Source of the DNA: an uncultured Alphaproteobacteria bacterium
GTDB taxonomy: Bacteria > Pseudomonadota > Alphaproteobacteria > RF32 > CAG-239
Reading direction: 5' to 3'
Assembly (NCBI GenBank): GCA_944390315.1
Contig: CALXPO010000009.1
Location: forward strand, 10,945 to 74,944
Length of the DNA stretch: 64,000 bases
Shown here piece after piece: positions 12,456 through 64,000 of the stretch. The translations under genes were made by a program, and so were the position numbers. The notes beneath the pieces were generated by a model, which was given only the letters and a program-made list of their open reading frames with translations, made no database searches and was not told where the DNA came from. The stretch's first letter is position 1; every line of letters starts with the position of its first letter.

Positions 12456-13733
12456 ATGCTGGATATAAAATTTATTATCGAGAACCAACAATTGGTTGAA
12501 GAAGGAATAGCCAAAAAAGGCTTACAAGTTGATATCAAAGGACTTATTGCTTTACATAAAGATATTAATAAGCTCAAAACTTCTTCTCAGGCTTTGGCTG
12601 AAGAGAAGAATCGATTAAGTAACTCGATAAAATCAGCTTCTGCCGAAGAACGTCCCAACATTATTGCCAAAAGTAAAGCTCTTGGTGAAGAATTAAAGGC
12701 AGAACAAGAAAAACTGGCGGCAGAACAGGCAAAATTCGATGATATTATGTGGCGTATGCCCAATCTCCCCAGCCCAGAAAGTCCGGTCGGAAAAGATGAT
12801 AGTGAAAATGTGGTCAGAAGAAGAGTCGGCGAACCGACCAAGTTTGATTTTACACCGCGTGACCATGTCGAATTAATGGATTTAAACGGCTGGAGTGAAA
12901 TGGAACGCATTACCAAAGTTTGCGGTTCGAGAACTTATGCCATTACTAATGAATTGGCTCGTTTGGAACTGGCTATTCACTTGATAGTTATGGATAAATT
13001 GGCCGAAAACGGTTTTAGAGTCATTAACGTGCCGTCAATTTCCAAAGAAAAACCACTTTATGGACAAGGATATTTACCTTTTGCTCGTGACGAAATCTAC
13101 TATATGCCCGAAGATGATTTGTATTTGTCGGGAACGGCTGAGCTTATTTTGAATTCATTGCGTGCCGATGAAATTATTCCCGAAAATGAGTTGCCGATTT
13201 TATATGCCGGTTTTTCCCCTTGCTTTCGTCGCGAAGCCGGTGCGGCAGGCAAAGATACCAGAGGTTTAACGCGTGTCCATCAATTTTTAAAGACGGAACA
13301 ATTCGTTATCTGCAAAAACGATGTGAACGAAAGCGAAAAATGGCACAAAAAACTGTTGCAGATTTCCGAAGAAATTTTGCAAGATTTGGAGTTGCCGTAT
13401 CAGGTTTTGGAAGTTTGTACCGGTGATATGGGTGCGCCTAAATATCGTCAATATGATTTGGAAGCCTGGGTTCCGACACAAAATTGTTATCGTGAAACTC
13501 ACAGCTGTTCAAATATTACCGATTGGCAAGCACGCCGTACTAATTTGCGTTATCGTGATAATACAGATGGCAAGGTTAAATTTGTTCATACTTTGAACAA
13601 TACCGGTATTGCCACTCCGCGTGTCCTGGTTCCGTTTTTGGAAAATCATCAGCAAGCCGATGGCTCGATTCGTATCCCCGAAAAACTGCAACCCTATATG
13701 ATGGGTAAGAAATTTATCGGTGGAAAGAAGTAA
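12456..13733 (+). CDS. serS: Serine--tRNA ligase
   Basis: 425 aa with N-terminal coiled-coil arm and class II core. Divergent from trpS. Confidence 0.9.
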   Translation: MLDIKFIIENQQLVEEGIAKKGLQVDIKGLIALHKDINKLKTSSQALAEEKNRLSNSIKSASAEERPNIIAKSKALGEELKAEQEKLAAEQAKFDDIMWRMPNLPSPESPVGKDDSENVVRRRVGEPTKFDFTPRDHVELMDLNGWSEMERITKVCGSRTYAITNELARLELAIHLIVMDKLAENGFRVINVPSISKEKPLYGQGYLPFARDEIYYMPEDDLYLSGTAELILNSLRADEIIPENELPILYAGFSPCFRREAGAAGKDTRGLTRVHQFLKTEQFVICKNDVNESEKWHKKLLQISEEILQDLELPYQVLEVCTGDMGAPKYRQYDLEAWVPTQNCYRETHSCSNITDWQARRTNLRYRDNTDGKVKFVHTLNNTGIATPRVLVPFLENHQQADGSIRIPEKLQPYMMGKKFIGGKK

Positions 13734-52397: not shown

Positions 52398-53222
52398 TTA
52401 GAAATTGTATGCTTTCCCTTTGTAGACGGCAAGTATAATATTTTGTTTGACGAAGGGGCGCTGGTTGCTTTGTACAAAAGTTAAAGTCGAAGTTTCTTTA
52501 TTGTAACCGCAGCCGATATAGCCTCTTGCCAAAAGTTTATCAATAAGATTAAAACTTGCAAAATGAACGTTCACTCCACGTGGGGGAAGGTCGGTTTTCG
52601 TTTTTAAGTTATGGTGCATTAAAGCAATTTTGCCGCCGTCGGCAGGATCAATTGCGGTGGCATACATTCTGAAACCGTTGTTAAAATAGGGCGGCATATT
52701 CCAATGATTGCTGCGGTCGATAATTGAAGCGGCACCGTTGCAGTGTAGATTTTTTGCCAGTTCCAAACGATAATCAATCATAATTTGGTTGAGATTGTTT
52801 CCTCTGTAAGCCGGCAAAACACTATCCGCACCGAGTGCGGCTATTCGTGTGTCGGAAGTTTTGAAAAAATTGAGCGGACTGTTGGGAATTTCGTCGGAAA
52901 ATTGTTGATGGTTGCGGCAAATCTTCAGATATGACATGGCAATCAATTTTTCCCCGACAAAAACACCGATATATTGTGTATCTGGATTTTTAATGGCTTG
53001 ATGATAGTAAGAAGTTTCGTGTTTGTGGATAAAACACTCTTCACCCAAACCGAGGTGGCGGTATATCTCTGCGGATAAGATACCCATATTTTCGGCGTCA
53101 TTACCGGAAAGCGGACGAATAGTGAAATGGGGTCCGTTATCAACTTTTTGACCGTCAATTTTATTTAATCTTCCGCGCCAAACAGAATGTCCGTTTATTG
53201 TATATTTTTGTATATTATTCAT
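52398..53222 (-). CDS. Hypothetical cytoplasmic protein, possibly GNAT-fold
   Basis: 274 aa, no TM. Weak acyl-CoA-binding-like motif (SVLPAYRGNNLNQIM). Convergent with the preceding membrane protein with a 3-nt gap. Confidence 0.35.
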   Translation of the reverse strand: MNNIQKYTINGHSVWRGRLNKIDGQKVDNGPHFTIRPLSGNDAENMGILSAEIYRHLGLGEECFIHKHETSYYHQAIKNPDTQYIGVFVGEKLIAMSYLKICRNHQQFSDEIPNSPLNFFKTSDTRIAALGADSVLPAYRGNNLNQIMIDYRLELAKNLHCNGAASIIDRSNHWNMPPYFNNGFRMYATAIDPADGGKIALMHHNLKTKTDLPPRGVNVHFASFNLIDKLLARGYIGCGYNKETSTLTFVQSNQRPFVKQNIILAVYKGKAYNF

Positions 53223-53240: not shown

Positions 53241-53270
53241 AAAAAAAAGGCGGGATAAACCCGCCTTATC
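53241..53270 (-). terminator. Rho-independent terminator (minus strand)
   Basis: On the minus strand: aggcgggtttatcccgcc followed by tttttttttg. 7-bp GC stem plus a 9-T run downstream of the Cys-rich secreted protein gene. Confidence 0.7.
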
Positions 53271-53444
53271 TTTGAACTGTATATTTCTAACACATACATA
53301 CAAACCCATACGGCGGGAAATAAATTTCCAGACGTTTAGATTTGATTTGTTTTATAAAGTTAGAAATCACAATTAACCTCATTATTTGTGTATCAACTAT
53401 TTTCAAAAATATAGATAAAGCGTCGGTGAGTCAAGAATTTTTTA

Positions 53445-54620
53445 TTATTTTGCGTTATTCTTTTGTTGCAATAAAATTTCTGCCGCGTATTTATCTTGTG
53501 CTTCAAAATTTTCCCAATTGATATATACAGTCGAAATATAGGCGACGCGGCTTTGGTCTTTTATCGCCTCTAAACCGTCCGGAAAAATAATTTGTACGCG
53601 TAGCATCCACGGTTTATCGAGCCAATAATAGGTATCCGAATAGTAAGTTTTGAGTTTTTGACAATCACTTTTTTCAAAATTTACAAAATTTTTGGTTTGA
53701 CATTCTTTTTGCAGAACATTCGTATTGATAAATTCGTGGATATCACATATTCCCGAACAGCCGTTCTTTTTGATATTTTTACGTCTGATGCTCACGGTTG
53801 CCGGTCCGTATTCTTTTAGCAAGTTTTCGACAATCTGCTTATAGCTGAGGTAACGGACATCGGGTGAAACGGACGGTTGATCGTTATACAAACCAAAGGG
53901 GACAATCGAAACAATGTTTTCGTAATGATTTGTTCCGAGCAAAAATCCTTTGCCTTTACATTTGGTTACCGTATAGGGAACTTCGCGGTATTGGCAAAAC
54001 ATATCTTCAAAATTTTGATAATTTGCTTGGCAGGCTTGCATAACTTCCACTTTTGCCAATCCGTCTGCATGGTCAATTGATTTGAGACAATTGAGATAAC
54101 TTATTCTTTTTCTGCTTTCACAATTATCTTCGTAAATACGTCGTGTATGGGTTTCGGTTACGATATTATCGCAATAATAGCCGTATTTCGTATTCCATGA
54201 ACCGTTTTTGGCGTCAGAAAACATAAAACTCTCGCGATAGGCATCGGGGATATGAGCCCAACAATCACCGGTAATTGTCTTTAAAAATGACATATCCGGT
54301 TCATAGTCCGAAAGTTTTACTTTTCTGGTTGCTATATCATTAAAATCGAGCCCCGATATTTTAAATTTGGATAAGTCTGCCGTTTTGGCGTATTTCATAG
54401 AAGGGTGTTCAAATTTGGTACCTTTTAAGGCTTTGAGATAATCTCTGAGATTTTCTTTTTCTTTCTCATTGATTTTATCGGCATACATATGTTCGCAAAC
54501 GCCGCCGTTAAGGAGCCTGTCATATCGATTTATAACTTCAACACTGACGACTTGAGCGGCTTTGCAATCAGCCGAAATTGATAAGAAAAGCAGAGCTATG
54601 GCAGTAAGTGTTTTTTTCAT
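53445..54620 (-). CDS. Secreted cysteine-rich protein of unknown function
   Basis: Signal peptide MKKTLTAIALLFLSISADCKA. About 20 Cys residues spread over 391 aa. 10-nt gap from the upstream ankyrin gene (operon). Confidence 0.5.
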   Translation of the reverse strand: MKKTLTAIALLFLSISADCKAAQVVSVEVINRYDRLLNGGVCEHMYADKINEKEKENLRDYLKALKGTKFEHPSMKYAKTADLSKFKISGLDFNDIATRKVKLSDYEPDMSFLKTITGDCWAHIPDAYRESFMFSDAKNGSWNTKYGYYCDNIVTETHTRRIYEDNCESRKRISYLNCLKSIDHADGLAKVEVMQACQANYQNFEDMFCQYREVPYTVTKCKGKGFLLGTNHYENIVSIVPFGLYNDQPSVSPDVRYLSYKQIVENLLKEYGPATVSIRRKNIKKNGCSGICDIHEFINTNVLQKECQTKNFVNFEKSDCQKLKTYYSDTYYWLDKPWMLRVQIIFPDGLEAIKDQSRVAYISTVYINWENFEAQDKYAAEILLQQKNNAK

Positions 54621-54629
54621 ATCTGTTTC

Positions 54630-55640
54630 CTAAAAAAGTTTGTCACCTTCAAGCTCTTGTAATTCATTATTTAATTTTTGACGTTTGGCCTGTTGTTTTT
54701 GCTCTTTTGCTTTTTTGATGTGATTGCGGATAAGTTGTACTTTTTCGGGAGAATCACAGTCGGTTGCCATATAACCGTTGATATCTTTGGCGTAAACATT
54801 GGCTCCGCTATCAAGCAAAAGTTTAACGACTTGTTTTGAAATGGCAGGACTGCAGGTTGCCCAAATCAAAGGCGTGTCTTTTTCTTCGGTGGGCAGAACT
54901 TCATTAACATTTGCTCCGTTTTTGATAGCTCCTTTGTATAGAGCAATATCGTTATAAATCTTTTCATTCTCAGAAAGCATTATATTTTTCAGAGGAAGTT
55001 TGGCTCCGGCGTTTAGCAAAACTTTGGCGTTTTCGTATTGTCTGTTGGTGACGGCAAATGTGACGGCAGAGTATCCCTGAAAATCTTTGCTTTCTAATTT
55101 TGCACCGTTTTTGAGTAATGTTTTAATTATTTCGGGATTGGAATTGTATGTAGCGGCAAACATTAGGGGGGTTTGTTGATGATTTTCGGTGTCATTGACG
55201 TTTGCTCCTTTTTTGAGGAGTTCTTTTATTATTTGCGGATTTTGATTCATTTGAGCAGCAAAAATAATCGGAGATCTGCCTGTTTTGCTGCGTTCGTTTA
55301 TGTCAGCTCCGTTTTTGATTAACAAATCTATTTTTTCGGGATTTTGCGAGAATGCAGCGACTCCCATTAATACCGACATATCGTATTTCTCATTGTAAGC
55401 TTTTACATCAGCTCCTTTTTCTATCAGTGTTTGGCAGGCTTCGGTAGATTCAAAAGTAATCAGAGGAAAGGGGCGTTCGAAAGATGAATATTCGTTAACA
55501 TCTGCTCCTTTTTGTATTTCCTCATGGAATTTTTCCATAGAAACTTCACCGTTTTCGGAGATGGCATTGTAGACAGACGGGGTAGAGCAACTGCAGAGTA
55601 AAGTTGATGCGAATAAGGCGGTATATATTGATTTTTTCAT
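54630..55640 (-). CDS. Ankyrin-repeat protein with signal peptide / possible lipobox
   Basis: N-terminus MKKSIYTALFASTLLCSCS. At least 6 ankyrin repeats (…LIEKGADVKAYN…, …LIKNGADINERSKTGRSPIIFAA…, …LLKKGANVNDTENHQQTPLMFAA…, …LLKNGAKLESKD…, …LLNAGAKL…, …LLDSGANVYAKDINGYMA…). Confidence 0.8.
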   Translation of the reverse strand: MKKSIYTALFASTLLCSCSTPSVYNAISENGEVSMEKFHEEIQKGADVNEYSSFERPFPLITFESTEACQTLIEKGADVKAYNEKYDMSVLMGVAAFSQNPEKIDLLIKNGADINERSKTGRSPIIFAAQMNQNPQIIKELLKKGANVNDTENHQQTPLMFAATYNSNPEIIKTLLKNGAKLESKDFQGYSAVTFAVTNRQYENAKVLLNAGAKLPLKNIMLSENEKIYNDIALYKGAIKNGANVNEVLPTEEKDTPLIWATCSPAISKQVVKLLLDSGANVYAKDINGYMATDCDSPEKVQLIRNHIKKAKEQKQQAKRQKLNNELQELEGDKLF

Positions 55641-55792
55641 ATGTCAGTCCTTTAGTCTTTGATATAAAAATATAATTATTACCAAGAGTTATTGCGTTCT
55701 ATGTTAGACTGATAAAATTTTGAGTCAACAAGAAAAAACATATGCACAAACAGATACAAAAAAACCTGCTTTAACAGCAGGTCTTTTCTATC

Positions 55793-55869
55793 TGGTCGGG
55801 ACGAGAGGATTCGAACCTCCGACTTCTTGCACCCCATGCAAGCGCTCTACCAGGCTGAACTACGTCCCG
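55793..55869 (-). tRNA. tRNA-Pro (anticodon GGG)
   Basis: Reverse complement reads CGGGACGTAGTTCAGCCTGGTAGAGCGCTTGCATGGGGTGCAAGAAGTCGGAGGTTCGAATCCTCTCGTCCCGACCA. 7-bp acceptor stem, D-arm GTTC/GAGC, anticodon stem CTTGC/GCAAG, loop AUGGGGU (GGG), T-arm GGAGGTTCGAATCCTCC, encoded CCA. Confidence 0.85.
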
Positions 55870-56033: not shown

Positions 56034-57002
56034 ATGTCTAATCGCCTAAATATTTGTCTGAGCTCCGATAATAATTATGTGCAACATATGGCGGTGACAA
56101 TTCAGTCACTGATTGATAATCATTTAAATAATGAACTCTTTATATATGTTCTGGATACAGATATATCTGAAGAAAATAAGACAAAAATCTTGTCGCTAAA
56201 AAGAGATAATGTTCAGATTATCTTTAAAAAAATTAATGAAGATTTATTCAAAGATTATAATTTTTCAGAAAAAAGCCATTTCACCTCAGCCATTTTTAAT
56301 CGTTTTAAAATTCCTGAGTTTTTTTCAAATTTAGATAGAGTTCTTTATATGGATGTCGATATTGTCGTTATGCAGAACTTATCCGATTTCTATAATATGG
56401 ATATGGAAGGTAAAGCTCTGGCAATGATTGCCGATTGGAACGAAAATATTCATAAAAAAAGAATGAATATCCAGAAATATTATAATTCAGGTGTTATGTT
56501 GTTTGATATCAAAAAATGTTTGCAACTCGATGTCTATAACCTTTTGATGAATGCTCTTAAAAACAATAAGCTCAATTTGAAAATGCCCGATCAGGATATT
56601 ATTAATCTGACTTGTCAAGAAATCATAAAACCGGTTGATTTTACCTGCAATACACAAATTCATCCTAATCTGTCCGATAATGTCAAATGGATTAATGATA
56701 ATATTGATAAAGTGAAAATTTTACACTACACCAGCCAGCAAAAACCCTGGAAACCAAAATTTGTGCCTTTTGAAGAATATTATTTCAAATATCTGCAAAT
56801 GACGCCTTGGAAAGAAAATGCAGAGGCTGTGATTTTTAGAAAAAAAATACGAAAAATCAGAGATTTTATATTTTCAACGGAAAAAATTGACCATAATATA
56901 AAATATCTCAAATTTATGGGCATAAAATGGTTTACCAGAGTTAAAATTAACGGCGAAAAACGTTTTTATTTTCTCGGGCTCAATATCTATAATCAAAAAT
57001 AA
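56034..57002 (+). CDS. Glycosyltransferase family 8 (LPS glucosyl/galactosyltransferase-like)
   Basis: GT8 motifs: LYMDVDIVV (DxD), YYNSGVMLFD, HYTSQQKPW. Confidence 0.75.
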   Translation: MSNRLNICLSSDNNYVQHMAVTIQSLIDNHLNNELFIYVLDTDISEENKTKILSLKRDNVQIIFKKINEDLFKDYNFSEKSHFTSAIFNRFKIPEFFSNLDRVLYMDVDIVVMQNLSDFYNMDMEGKALAMIADWNENIHKKRMNIQKYYNSGVMLFDIKKCLQLDVYNLLMNALKNNKLNLKMPDQDIINLTCQEIIKPVDFTCNTQIHPNLSDNVKWINDNIDKVKILHYTSQQKPWKPKFVPFEEYYFKYLQMTPWKENAEAVIFRKKIRKIRDFIFSTEKIDHNIKYLKFMGIKWFTRVKINGEKRFYFLGLNIYNQK

Positions 57003-60844: not shown

Positions 60845-63800
60845 TCAGAAAGCGTAGTTCAAACCGACACCAAAGGTCGTCGCGTCATAGTCGCTGCCAA
60901 AGGTATAGTTCGCCCAACCATAGGCCGATAATACAGAACTTATACCATAACGACCGCCTATCTCTACTCGACCTAACGTCTCGTCATCCAAACTCTCAAC
61001 CTTACCTAATCCGCTGATACTTACTTCTCCGCCATCGGTTATCGTTTGCACAACACTCGGTTTGATATAAACATTTGCATAACCATTGTCATACCAAAAG
61101 CCTTTGGTTAATTTGATACCTGCTTCAATTTCTATTTGACGAATATTATCATATTCTGCCTTCTTACCGACATTGTCTTTTGCATCGTCATAGTTAATTT
61201 GGACATAATAGATACCTAGGCTCGGAGTTATATATAAATCACCCTGTAAAGCATAGTCATATCCGACTTCCGCACTGCCGCCGAACTCTATACCGTCCGT
61301 GTCCGATTTTACACCGTCTTTCGTCTTGAGATCGGCTTCCTGCATACCGCCGTAGACTGTCGCAAAGCCATACCAATTGTTCTTATCATAACGATAGTAT
61401 AAACCTGCTACATAGCTGTCTATGCCTATCTCCGAACCTATATCCGAACGATAATGTTTGCCGGCCCCGCTCATATCATACTCTCCGTTACGATACGAGA
61501 CAAACAAGCCTAAACGATTGTTGACATCATATTGCAAATCACCGCCGGCCTCAACACCCCAAATATCCGTATCAACATCAAAATATGAATCCGAACTCGA
61601 TTTATAATAGGTCGGATTAATCCAAACATTTTCATAGGATTCACCATTCCAATGACTATCAACAAAGCTGCAGGAACGAGTATAATAACGATTATTTTTG
61701 ATTTGATTGCCTACATTATCTACCATATTGCGGGTTTGTTCTATTCCCGCTATCGGCAAAGCACCAAAGGCTATAACTTCAGGAGCTACATTCGTTGACG
61801 GCACATCAGGTATTTCAGGATCATCAGGTATTACCGGTTCATCCGGTACTTCCGGCTCACTATCAGAATCCGGATTAACCATGTCATTCATAACCAATGA
61901 CCATTCTTTGTTTGTCTCATCCGCACTATAACTTACATCAAACAGATATGGACTCTTATAAACACGCCATACCTTGAATGAATCCGAATTTCCCGTTGTA
62001 TCATTTGTAGATTGTGCAAACAAAATACTTTCACCGCGAATGTCTTTTTCCGAGTTAGCATATACCAATAAATTTGTTTGCCCCTCTACATTGCCGTTAA
62101 CATTCAAAACATCGGCTGTCAAATTTTCAACATCTACATCTATATGCAGATAACCATTATCCGACTTCCAACCTGCCAGTCTGACTTCATCTTTATAGTC
62201 ATTGTACAAATCAAACGCCGCATTCGTTAAAGTCATTTTTGTGACCGGTTCACTTGTAGAAATAATTTCCCCTTTGCCATAGGGACCCGTTCCTAAAACT
62301 AATGTGTTTGATGAAACATAAATACTTCCTGCATTGGCAATGCTATTATTCAATTTGACATACTGAGGAGTTTTTAGCGTTTCATCATCAATATCCTTAT
62401 CCCCGTATATACCTAGGCTATAACCACTCTCACCATCAATACCGTCATTTACTAATATAATTCCGTTATTGCTCGTCGTCAGTACAAGATCATTAGCATC
62501 TCCGCTTCCAGATGTGTTTATTGTTACGTCCCAATCTACATTCTTGCCACTAAAGCCTGGAAAAATATCATCCTCAAAAGAGGCCATTCCAGTTTTATTC
62601 AAAACATAAAAAGCATTATGTTCTCCATTTGCCGTATTACCGTCTATTATAGATGTGTAATTATCTGCCGTAATCTTAATACCACTGCCATAGAAAGCGC
62701 CACCTAACGCATCTCCGTTCGCGGCTTGAACATAATTGTTGCGAAATGACGAATTATAAAAATTTAACTGACCTTGGGTTTCAATTGTTGGTGTAATTTC
62801 CGTTATATAGGTTGCATTATTTATCATTTCTTGCGTGGCAACAACATTATTTCGGATATTTGTTAATGCTTTTTCTTGGTCCGCTTCCGATTGCTGATAA
62901 AATTGTGATAAATACTCTTGTCTATCTTCCTCATTTATAGCTCCTGCTTTTATCATCAAATCTATATAATCTTCCGCAGTGATATTATCCGGAGATAATT
63001 CCAGCAAATAAGCATAAATTGAATAAGTTTTATATTGATTAAAATCCCTTTCATTATCAACCGTCATCGTTCCTGATACAATTTGCATATTTTCCGAAGA
63101 AGTTCCCCCTTGAGGAATATACAACTCCATTTCTTGATCACCATATTTCAGATTAATATGATACATCAGATTATTAGAAAACTCCGGAGCTTGAATCTTT
63201 ATATTGGCATCATTATAAACAGCTCCACCATAAGCATCTCCTTGATCACTGATTGCATAATTACCAAGGAAATTGCCCGTAATACTTCCAATTTGACCAT
63301 TATTATATATGGCACCGCCAATTGAAACTGCATCTACACTTTGAGCATAATTACCTATAAAATCACCCGTTATAGCTTCAATTTTTGCATGGGTATAACT
63401 GTTCGTGTCTAAATAATTGTATATTGCTCCACCATATGCGGAACCTTTAATTTGACTGTTATATACGTAATTCTGTATAAAATCACCATTTATGTTTTTT
63501 ATAGTTACATCATTCTCATTAACTATTGCTCCGCCAGATATATAAGAAGATCCCTCACCTCCATGCTCAGCTATGACATAGTTACCTTCAAAATTACCGG
63601 TAATGTTGCCGATTGTGCCTACTATATTAAAAATAGCTCCTCCATGAGCATCTCCGGATGAATAAATCGTATTAACATCCGCATGTGCATAGTTTCCTAT
63701 AAAATCACCTATAATATCACCAATCTCACCATTGTTATATATTGCACCTCCAGTTGAAACTGCGTCTACACTTTGAGTATAATTTTCTATAAAATCACCA

Positions 63801-64000
63801 ATAATAGATTTAATTGATGAACCGCTATTAATAATTGCGCCTCCTTTTGCCTCAACTTTTCCAACGGCATAATTACCTATAAAATTCCCTTGAATATTAC
63901 CAATATAACTTCCGCTGTCAAAATTAGAAATTGCCCCGCCGTAAGAAGAACCCAAAGTACTTCCCGCATAATTGCCTATAAAATGACTGTTTAAAATGCT
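60845..64000 (-). CDS. Autotransporter (type Va) with Pmp-like GGAI/FxxN repeat passenger (N-terminal part lies beyond the window end)
   Basis: C-terminal ~280 aa beta-barrel ending …GVGLNYAF. Pro-rich linker PEVPDEPVIPDDPEIPDVP. Passenger built of about 45-aa repeats, each with GGAIYN/GGAIFN/GGAVYN and GNFIGNYA/GDFIGNYA (FxxN) motifs. Frame is open to the window edge. Confidence 0.75.
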   Translation of the reverse strand, partial: SILNSHFIGNYAGSTLGSSYGGAISNFDSGSYIGNIQGNFIGNYAVGKVEAKGGAIINSGSSIKSIIGDFIENYTQSVDAVSTGGAIYNNGEIGDIIGDFIGNYAHADVNTIYSSGDAHGGAIFNIVGTIGNITGNFEGNYVIAEHGGEGSSYISGGAIVNENDVTIKNINGDFIQNYVYNSQIKGSAYGGAIYNYLDTNSYTHAKIEAITGDFIGNYAQSVDAVSIGGAIYNNGQIGSITGNFLGNYAISDQGDAYGGAVYNDANIKIQAPEFSNNLMYHINLKYGDQEMELYIPQGGTSSENMQIVSGTMTVDNERDFNQYKTYSIYAYLLELSPDNITAEDYIDLMIKAGAINEEDRQEYLSQFYQQSEADQEKALTNIRNNVVATQEMINNATYITEITPTIETQGQLNFYNSSFRNNYVQAANGDALGGAFYGSGIKITADNYTSIIDGNTANGEHNAFYVLNKTGMASFEDDIFPGFSGKNVDWDVTINTSGSGDANDLVLTTSNNGIILVNDGIDGESGYSLGIYGDKDIDDETLKTPQYVKLNNSIANAGSIYVSSNTLVLGTGPYGKGEIISTSEPVTKMTLTNAAFDLYNDYKDEVRLAGWKSDNGYLHIDVDVENLTADVLNVNGNVEGQTNLLVYANSEKDIRGESILFAQSTNDTTGNSDSFKVWRVYKSPYLFDVSYSADETNKEWSLVMNDMVNPDSDSEPEVPDEPVIPDDPEIPDVPSTNVAPEVIAFGALPIAGIEQTRNMVDNVGNQIKNNRYYTRSCSFVDSHWNGESYENVWINPTYYKSSSDSYFDVDTDIWGVEAGGDLQYDVNNRLGLFVSYRNGEYDMSGAGKHYRSDIGSEIGIDSYVAGLYYRYDKNNWYGFATVYGGMQEADLKTKDGVKSDTDGIEFGGSAEVGYDYALQGDLYITPSLGIYYVQINYDDAKDNVGKKAEYDNIRQIEIEAGIKLTKGFWYDNGYANVYIKPSVVQTITDGGEVSISGLGKVESLDDETLGRVEIGGRYGISSVLSAYGWANYTFGSDYDATTFGVGLNYAF

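Follow-up and report, generated by a model that had tools for sequence, protein, structure and literature searches.

What do two adjacent genes, one for an ankyrin-repeat protein with a lipoprotein signal and one for a cysteine-rich secreted protein, do beside the tRNA-Pro(GGG) gene of an uncultured alphaproteobacterium, and how did they come to lie there? The locus is part of a stretch of 64,000 nucleotides of contig CALXPO010000009.1 (hereafter the window), which is chromosomal: genes for DnaE, ValS and glycogen phosphorylase are present. A reading made earlier from the letters alone (the sequence-only reading) had suspected a horizontally acquired islet at the 3' end of the tRNA gene. Comparison with related genomes shows that the pair occupies an accessory cassette of approximately 2.4 kb in an exchange hot spot, which has two conserved anchors and carries other cargo in relatives, and that in two species the genes are passed on together. 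Their signal peptides, in turn, show both products to be predicted exports. With a confidence slightly better than even, we take the pair to be an envelope-located binding unit carried on a laterally exchanged accessory cassette of a gut alphaproteobacterium.

ARAGORN places tRNA-Pro(GGG) on the minus strand at 55793–55869 [Rfam RF00005, 59 bits], so that its 3' end lies at 55793, exactly where the sequence-only reading had put it. This right-hand, conserved anchor of the variable slot is the sole tRNA gene in the window; it is 77 nt long and differs by 0 or 1 base in all relatives compared. Downstream on the same strand follow the gene for the ankyrin-repeat lipoprotein (54630–55640, 336 aa), defined by its open reading frame (ORF) and a Pfam Ank_2 match, and that for the cysteine-rich secreted protein (53445–54620, 391 aa), an ORF belonging to an unclassified family. 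Nine nucleotides separate the ankyrin stop codon from the start of the second gene, both ORFs are in one frame, and the AGGA Shine-Dalgarno sequence of the second gene overlaps the stop codon of the first.

The spacer between tRNA-Pro and the ankyrin gene measures 152 nt. It contains an intrinsic terminator hairpin of the tRNA (55758–55788, minus strand), found by a terminator scan and by comparison of tRNA-downstream sequences, and a promoter-like site 5' of the ankyrin gene, TTGACT-16-TAACAT (55701–55728, minus strand), which is called by consensus match alone (9/12). With a terminator behind the tRNA and a promoter-like site before the ankyrin gene, the pair is predicted to form its own transcription unit, separate from the tRNA. 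Co-transcription with tRNA-Pro was considered as well and is ruled out by the same two features. The two-gene arrangement proposed earlier thus stands as regards common strand and tight spacing, but not as regards a functional abutment of the tRNA.

The cassette (53405–55792, minus strand) extends from the tRNA 3' end to the point where, in alignments, similarity to the L105 lineage and to the sister species (L102) resumes. Here lies the left-hand anchor, a conserved leader- or small-RNA-like element (53247–53434, minus strand) made up of a promoter-like site (53406–53434), a core (approximately 53290–53400) and a terminator (53247–53267), followed by the GNAT-like gene. From the left breakpoint, at about 53405, an element of approximately 110 nt and the terminator are conserved in both L105 and L102. 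The terminator scan finds a hairpin and then a T-run at 53247–53267 on the minus strand, as expected of the operon terminator described by the sequence-only reading; it is not operon-specific, however, since the element before it exists in relatives without the pair. No Rfam match was obtained for 53247–53434, and the element may serve the GNAT-like gene as a riboswitch, leader or small RNA. Its strong terminator is situated just before the GNAT-like start codon, and it is conserved in relatives at approximately 86–95% protein identity. The GNAT-like gene itself (52398–53222, minus strand, 274 aa; Pfam Acetyltransf_1 match below cut-off) is a conserved flank outside the cassette.

Both flanks are shared with the relatives. 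For the GNAT-like protein, identity amounts to 82.7% (sister species) and 92% (L105), and in all of them its gene adjoins one for a 355-aa membrane protein (86% and 95% identity, respectively). On the other side a block composed of DinB, a 144-aa protein, MGMT, GT2 and His-phosphatase is syntenic across relatives, and tRNA-Pro(GGG) is found upstream of this block, in the same orientation, in L015/L016, L018, L021 and L026–L028. Similarity among the relatives stops directly past the tRNA-Pro 3' end. The pair is absent in the sister species, whose flank proteins are 77–97% identical (most 83–92%), and in the closer L105 lineage, in which most are approximately 92–98% identical and one is 81%. 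A comparison of the tRNA-Pro locus across relatives, which the sequence-only reading had proposed, therefore finds the pair not to be syntenic in all of them.

In the window species the slot holds the ankyrin and cysteine-rich genes only. Its content in the sister species comprises PALP, HAD, thymidine kinase (TK), an SLFN-like helicase and a type I restriction-modification (R-M) system, the order across the whole locus being DUF2339, 355-aa membrane protein, GNAT-like, PALP, HAD, TK, SLFN-like helicase, HsdR/S/M, tRNA-Pro, GT8 and DinB. L105 possesses a rhodanese-domain gene beside the GNAT-like gene, L018 the SLFN-like helicase alone at the tRNA, and L021 an HsdM-like methylase. The SLFN-like [PF09848] helicases of L018 (592–2652) and the sister species (L102 15124–17184) are 95.5% identical, whereas DinB, at 73% identity to that of the window in L018 and 86% in the sister species, is far more diverged. 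Cargo has on this evidence moved between species at this slot, which indicates a recent inter-species transfer of the helicase.

Two minor observations concern the slot in relatives. In the sister species it is the type I R-M system, with additional genes inserted, that separates the SLFN-like helicase from the tRNA. L028 displays an inverted T-arm-like pair (GGATTTGAACCTCC ... GGAGGTTCGA) approximately 40–90 nt past the tRNA-Pro 3' end, after the tRNA terminator; it adjoins a Dam-like methylase gene and may be a remnant of an attachment site.

In the window the slot holds its two genes only, and no recombinase family occurs within about 10 kb on each side in the precomputed Pfam annotations. 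There is no second copy of the tRNA-Pro 3' end in the window when 2–3 mismatches are allowed, and no relevant flanking repeat in 44–57.5 kb; the sequence-only reading was thus correct in reporting neither an integrase nor a direct repeat. A compositional analysis, also proposed there, gave no deviation in GC, GC3 (GC at third codon positions) or codon usage: the GC content of the ankyrin and cysteine-rich genes is 0.375 and 0.384, their GC3 is 0.365 and 0.353, and their codon bias is within 1 standard deviation (sd) of the window genes.

Like tRNA-linked genomic islands, the cassette adjoins the 3' end of a tRNA gene, varies in presence between close relatives with syntenic flanks, consists of accessory cargo, and shares its slot with other cargo. 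Unlike islands of the integrase type it has no integrase, no duplicated tRNA end as a distal direct repeat, and no deviant composition, and the exchange looks instead like homologous recombination between conserved anchors. The islet proposed earlier is consequently borne out as a variable slot from which the pair is missing in close relatives, but not in its classical form. We suggest that the cassette would be gained and exchanged by homologous recombination across the conserved anchors, with no integrase involved.

The same pair occurs in a second species, here called species B. Its cysteine-rich orthologue is 51% identical to that of the window, and the gene invariably follows one for a 369-aa ankyrin lipoprotein (45% identity by tblastn); gene order and close spacing are the same on more than 16 contigs. 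The constant core in species B is composed of an autotransporter gene on the opposite strand, the ankyrin gene, the cysteine-rich gene, a HipB-like gene and HipA. It is located between tRNA-Met and tRNA-Leu, both 3' ends of which face the core. Since the core has a GC content of 0.36–0.44 and the chromosomal flanks one of 0.47–0.60, this block is compositionally foreign in species B; its GC content resembles that of the window genome. When strains are compared, the breakpoints fall at the tRNA-Met and tRNA-Leu 3' ends or inside them. The other insertions found there are a phage-like element, a resolvase/ParB element and an island with AAA_15/RloB and the Cap4 nuclease.

The phage-like element abuts a 57-nt 3' fragment of tRNA-Met (L005 6677–6733), while the defence island (AAA_15/RloB, Cap4 nuclease, resolvases) starts in the last bases of tRNA-Leu (L005/L006, approximately 13271–13276). 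The two tRNA genes of species B are in effect two active integration sites flanking a conserved block. The autotransporter gene which is the immediate neighbour of the pair is variable in length and apparently often disrupted.

Within the window species itself both genes vary in a peculiar manner. Between the window and strain L013 there are 104 single-nucleotide polymorphisms (SNPs) over 7.3 kb, 86 of which fall in two patches totalling 850 nt (clustering p=3.5e-62). The first, at 54900–55100 (minus strand), covers ankyrin repeats 6–7 (aa ~180–247) and reaches 17% nucleotide divergence between two otherwise nearly identical strains; it was delimited from the SNP map and the allele alignment. 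The second, seen in the same SNP map at 53500–54150 (minus strand), affects the cysteine-rich gene (aa ~157–373) with approximately 8% divergence. Synonymous divergence (dS) amounts to 0.18 in the cysteine-rich gene and 0.08 in the ankyrin gene compared with about 0.01 in the flanking genes, and a third allele is visible in P0005.

The between-strain dN/dS ratio is 0.30 for the ankyrin gene and 0.08 for the cysteine-rich gene. Because of these values, and of conservation in a second species, both genes are judged to be coding. The patches bear the signature of recombination tracts imported from divergent alleles and held under purifying selection. Diversifying, positive or relaxed selection as the source of the strain differences was also considered, and is ruled out by dN/dS ratios of 0.08–0.30 together with the strongly raised dS.

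Need the pair have been acquired at all? It might be ancestral at this position, the other lineages sampled having since lost or replaced it. The native composition would agree with this, as would the lack of an integrase and of an att-like repeat, and 45–51% identity between the pairs of the two species could fit an old vertical divergence. One would not then have expected three different slot occupants in the three closest lineages, nor the demonstrable transfer of the helicase between species at the same slot. Moreover, species B has its pair at another location, inside a low-GC block that tRNA 3' ends delimit, and the tRNA terminator in the window differs from the version common to L015, L018 and L021. 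We consider an ancestral pair to be quite unlikely.

Turning to the products, the ankyrin protein is recognized by Ank_2 [5.7e-49, 165 bits against a cut-off of 27.3] and Ank [3.7e-28]. The sequence-only reading had counted at least six ankyrin repeats behind a signal peptide with a lipobox. Profile searches agree, the lipobox is present, and eight repeats can be counted from 'GA[DNK][VIL]' loops at residues 45, 76, 111, 145, 179, 212, 242 and 279, spaced 30–37 residues apart. The N-terminus (MKKSIYTALFASTLLCSC) displays a K-rich n-region, a hydrophobic core and the lipobox L-L-C-S|C18, and in alignment Cys18 coincides with the lipobox cysteine of the species-B orthologue (I-G-G|C). The protein thus has the features of a Sec/SPII (signal peptidase II) lipoprotein, lipidation being predicted from the lipobox. 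Its K/Q/E-rich C-terminal tail ends in '...LExDKLF' and is kept in both species. Comparison with PDB sequences returned generic or designed ankyrin proteins only, and was of no aid in assigning the protein to a family.

The abundance of ankyrin repeats in bacteria is reported to track a host-associated lifestyle (PMC3932732). The sequence-only reading, which called such repeats eukaryotic-like, had thought of a host-interaction effector. Generalized to the locus, this would make the cassette a horizontally acquired, eukaryote-like islet whose ankyrin and cysteine-rich proteins act on host cells or the mucosal surface. Sample names and metagenome-assembled genome (MAG) titles point to a gut-associated organism. 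The neighbouring DinB is 62–69% identical to homologs from human or animal gut MAGs labelled 'uncultured Alphaproteobacteria' or 'Azospirillum sp. 51_20', and its relatives at 73–89% identity are found in metagenome assemblies only. The accessory nature of the cassette, the autotransporter gene which adjoins the species-B pair, and a weak resemblance of MORN_2-fused relatives of the cysteine-rich protein to a Leptospira adhesin model could be counted on the same side.

A lipoprotein, on the other hand, remains attached to the cell, which sets it apart from a translocated effector. The best NCBIfam matches of the ankyrin protein are to the Dot/Icm effectors of Legionella (AnkH, AnkY, AnkG, AnkX), with which it shares ankyrin repeats, but it scores 42–60 bits compared with cut-offs of 500–1400 bits, and it differs from them as a predicted Sec-exported lipoprotein with no type IV secretion system (T4SS) nearby. 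No secretion apparatus was found within about 10 kb, nor did profile searches of the cysteine-rich protein against Pfam and PDB sequences reveal homology to eukaryotic cysteine-rich domains. In the form stated, the effector proposal finds no support in these results, and an islet directed at host cells appears improbable to us. For a surface-exposed complex, a surface role in host contact may nevertheless be envisaged. Outright membership of the Dot/Icm T4SS ankyrin effectors [NF043022/23/28/29] was tried separately and rejected, the best score being 59.6 bits against a cut-off of 600.

The second product was described by the sequence-only reading as a 391-aa secreted protein with about 20 cysteines. 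Length and signal peptide are as stated, the latter being hydrophobic and also kept in species B, but the cysteines number 13 (3.3%), 12 of which remain after removal of the signal peptide. Eleven of these 12 mature cysteines are invariant between the window and species-B proteins.

Relatives of this protein are exceedingly scarce. It has three matches, in two sequence clusters, among 5.8 billion proteins, and when 1.84 billion cluster representatives were searched exhaustively with HMMER, the family came to 14 members. None were found in GTDB representative genomes, in IMG/VR viral contigs, PLSDB plasmids or INPHARED phages, or, with the family alignment, in JGI metagenome contigs. No Pfam, NCBIfam, PADLOC or PHROGs family was matched even at E≤5 for all 13 family members, and the profile found nothing among PDB sequences at E≤1. 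An AlphaFold2 (AF2) model [pLDDT 76, pTM 0.69] has no significant Foldseek match in PDB or BFVD. This is a new, very rare and uncharacterised protein family and, judging from the model, possibly a new fold.

What the remote family members have in common with the cysteine-rich protein is its C-terminal two-thirds, including the cysteine core and two motifs, 'IPYxRVVxALxEKYGPAT' and 'FYWxDxxW'. The invariant columns of the family consist of Y, G, W, W and N plus cysteines, and because they hold no catalytic-type motif the protein is probably non-enzymatic. Remote members are often fused to N-terminal MORN_2 repeats, and in most of the family the C-terminus is predicted to be a K/E-rich helix that closes, strictly C-terminally, with 'KIxNF[EK]L'. 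No such tail is present in the window protein; its ankyrin partner carries a similar one, ending in DKLF.

The resemblance between the 'KIxNF[EK]L' tails of the family and the '...LExDKLF' tails of the ankyrin partners (54630–54720 in the window) may mean that they are a shared docking or sorting motif.

Secreted proteins with MORN_2 repeats [PF07661] are therefore worth comparing with the window pair. They possess the cysteine-containing core and both family motifs in their C-terminal module; unlike the window, where the scaffold is encoded separately, they have it fused to the module, and they carry the 'KIxNF[EK]L' tail, K/E-rich, which is missing from the window cysteine-rich protein. At three remote loci the next gene specifies an 83-aa secreted protein, and two of these loci also carry unrelated lipoproteins. 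We count the fusion to MORN_2 repeats and the proximity to lipoproteins, as a linkage to scaffold or lipoprotein, in favour of an envelope-located binding unit.

The genes for the 83-aa secreted protein lie downstream of the remote family members at L101 2865–3116, L106 3171–3422 and L107 1676–1927. The protein is composed of three 23-residue 'CWxIxNxDxxxxCLAxxK' repeats, has six cysteines, and gave no Pfam match.

How might the two proteins function together? The ankyrin product, lipidated at Cys18, would be tethered to a membrane and would face the periplasm or the cell surface. The cysteine-rich product would be exported by Sec and fold with up to six disulfides. The ankyrin solenoid would then bind the cysteine-rich protein as a putative anchor, chaperone or inhibitor, so that the pair would act as a single unit in the envelope. 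Its role would be accessory, probably an interaction with competitors, phages or the host surface, and probably not an enzymatic one. A periplasmic ankyrin protein which supports a co-encoded partner is exemplified by KatB-AnkB of Pseudomonas aeruginosa. There too an ankyrin protein directed to the periplasm shares a transcript with the protein that it assists; the window partner, however, is no catalase and has no match among known families, and the window ankyrin protein is predicted to be lipid-anchored.

In architecture the closest described analogue is Tli of Enterobacter cloacae, an ankyrin-repeat lipoprotein which must be periplasmic to neutralise Tle, a type VI secretion system (T6SS) lipase (bioRxiv 10.1101/2023.03.28.534661). 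In both systems an ankyrin-repeat protein with a lipoprotein signal is encoded directly beside its partner, and Tli binds that partner and acts in the periplasm. By this logic the cysteine-rich protein would be an exported toxin that attacks bacteria in their periplasm or envelope, and the ankyrin lipoprotein its periplasmic immunity protein. Besides the Tli precedent one can cite the tight coupling of the two genes, the mosaic alleles in both, their very narrow distribution, the R-M, HipBA and other defence genes which the slots of the pair otherwise hold, and the unrelated lipoproteins which adjoin remote family members.

The likeness to Tle and Tli goes no further. Whereas Tle is an alpha/beta-hydrolase phospholipase that a T6SS delivers, the window partner has a Sec signal peptide of its own and no alpha/beta-hydrolase, lipase or other toxin domain, and no catalytic residues are conserved in its family. 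The gene order is reversed, so that the putative immunity gene lies upstream and not downstream. VgrG, PAAR and other T6SS families are absent from the window neighbourhood, as are T4SS and contact-dependent inhibition (CDI) genes within approximately 10 kb. Among PDB sequences the window ankyrin protein matches only generic or designed ankyrin proteins. The low dN/dS ratio and a relative which stands alone among housekeeping genes fit a toxin-immunity pair poorly as well, and we hold such a pair to be rather unlikely, though not negligible. As a candidate family, Tle/Tli was rejected on the partner domain, the Sec signal and the absence of a T6SS.

The cargo of the hot spots raises another thought, namely that the lipoprotein, together with the secreted protein encoded beside it, keeps phages from adsorbing, or their DNA from entering, at the envelope. 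The same slot in relatives holds a type I R-M system and the SLFN-like helicase; the species-B pair has HipBA as neighbours and, in some strains, AAA_15/RloB and the Cap4 nuclease; and allelic mosaicism would fit frequency-dependent selection. This is guilt by association, however, and the family is too rare for context statistics. PADLOC-DB 2.0 gives generic ankyrin matches (PDC-M72A, Ankyrin) for the first gene and none for the second, and no relatives occur in the phage or plasmid collections searched. An anti-phage module strikes us as very unlikely. Little more credence would attach to a broader proposal, that of a hitherto unrecognised Sec-exported envelope conflict system with a new fold which moves between gut alphaproteobacteria, as a cassette of just two genes, via tRNA-flanked defence hot spots and serves either to exclude phages or as an antibacterial effector of a non-enzymatic kind, with tethered immunity.

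Several points tell against a laterally exchanged, envelope-located binding unit. The composition of the pair is native-like in the window, and the acquisition could be old or have a close relative as its source, or other lineages could instead have lost the pair. The mechanism of exchange is one which we infer from the anchors and mosaic patches alone. One relative of the cysteine-rich protein, P0138, is found among housekeeping genes and has neither an ankyrin nor a lipoprotein neighbour. Finally, the sample consists of a handful of genomes, every one of them a metagenome assembly.

P0138 (L100) is the closest of the remote relatives. Its gene is preceded by those for KdsB, HIT and TilS, with no ankyrin gene, and is followed by a type IV pilin-like gene (L100 5645–5944) with the N-terminal sequence 'GRSMIEMLGVLAIIGVLS'.

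The themes which the locus varies, the tRNA-linked islet and the ankyrin lipoprotein with a partner, are known ones. If the pair is indeed an envelope binding unit in a tRNA-anchored hot spot, it adds a rare uncharacterised family, possibly with a new fold, to the accessory repertoire of the poorly known uncultured Alphaproteobacteria of the human gut. The locus would also provide a clean case of cassettes being swapped without an integrase, the anchors being a tRNA gene and a leader-like element, and would extend the combination of ankyrin lipoprotein and partner beyond the Tle and Tli of T6SS. Until a function can be demonstrated, its value in practice stays modest.

Three further features of the window deserve mention. 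Between the tRNA and DinB a GT8 glycosyltransferase gene (56034–57002, plus strand) has a GC content of 0.29, approximately 3 sd below the window genes; it is absent from relatives with a DinB identity of ≤68% and may be an acquired lipopolysaccharide-modification gene. The window has an autotransporter gene of its own (60845–63955, minus strand, 1036 aa) at a distance of 5 kb from the pair, and a fragment of its C-terminal beta-domain is present at a different locus of the sister species (L102 1558–1888). Lastly, the GC skew changes from approximately +0.1 to approximately -0.25 over 61001–64000 and the cumulative skew peaks near 61 kb; the switch coincides with this long minus-strand gene, and may be due to a gene-strand effect or mark a replication landmark.

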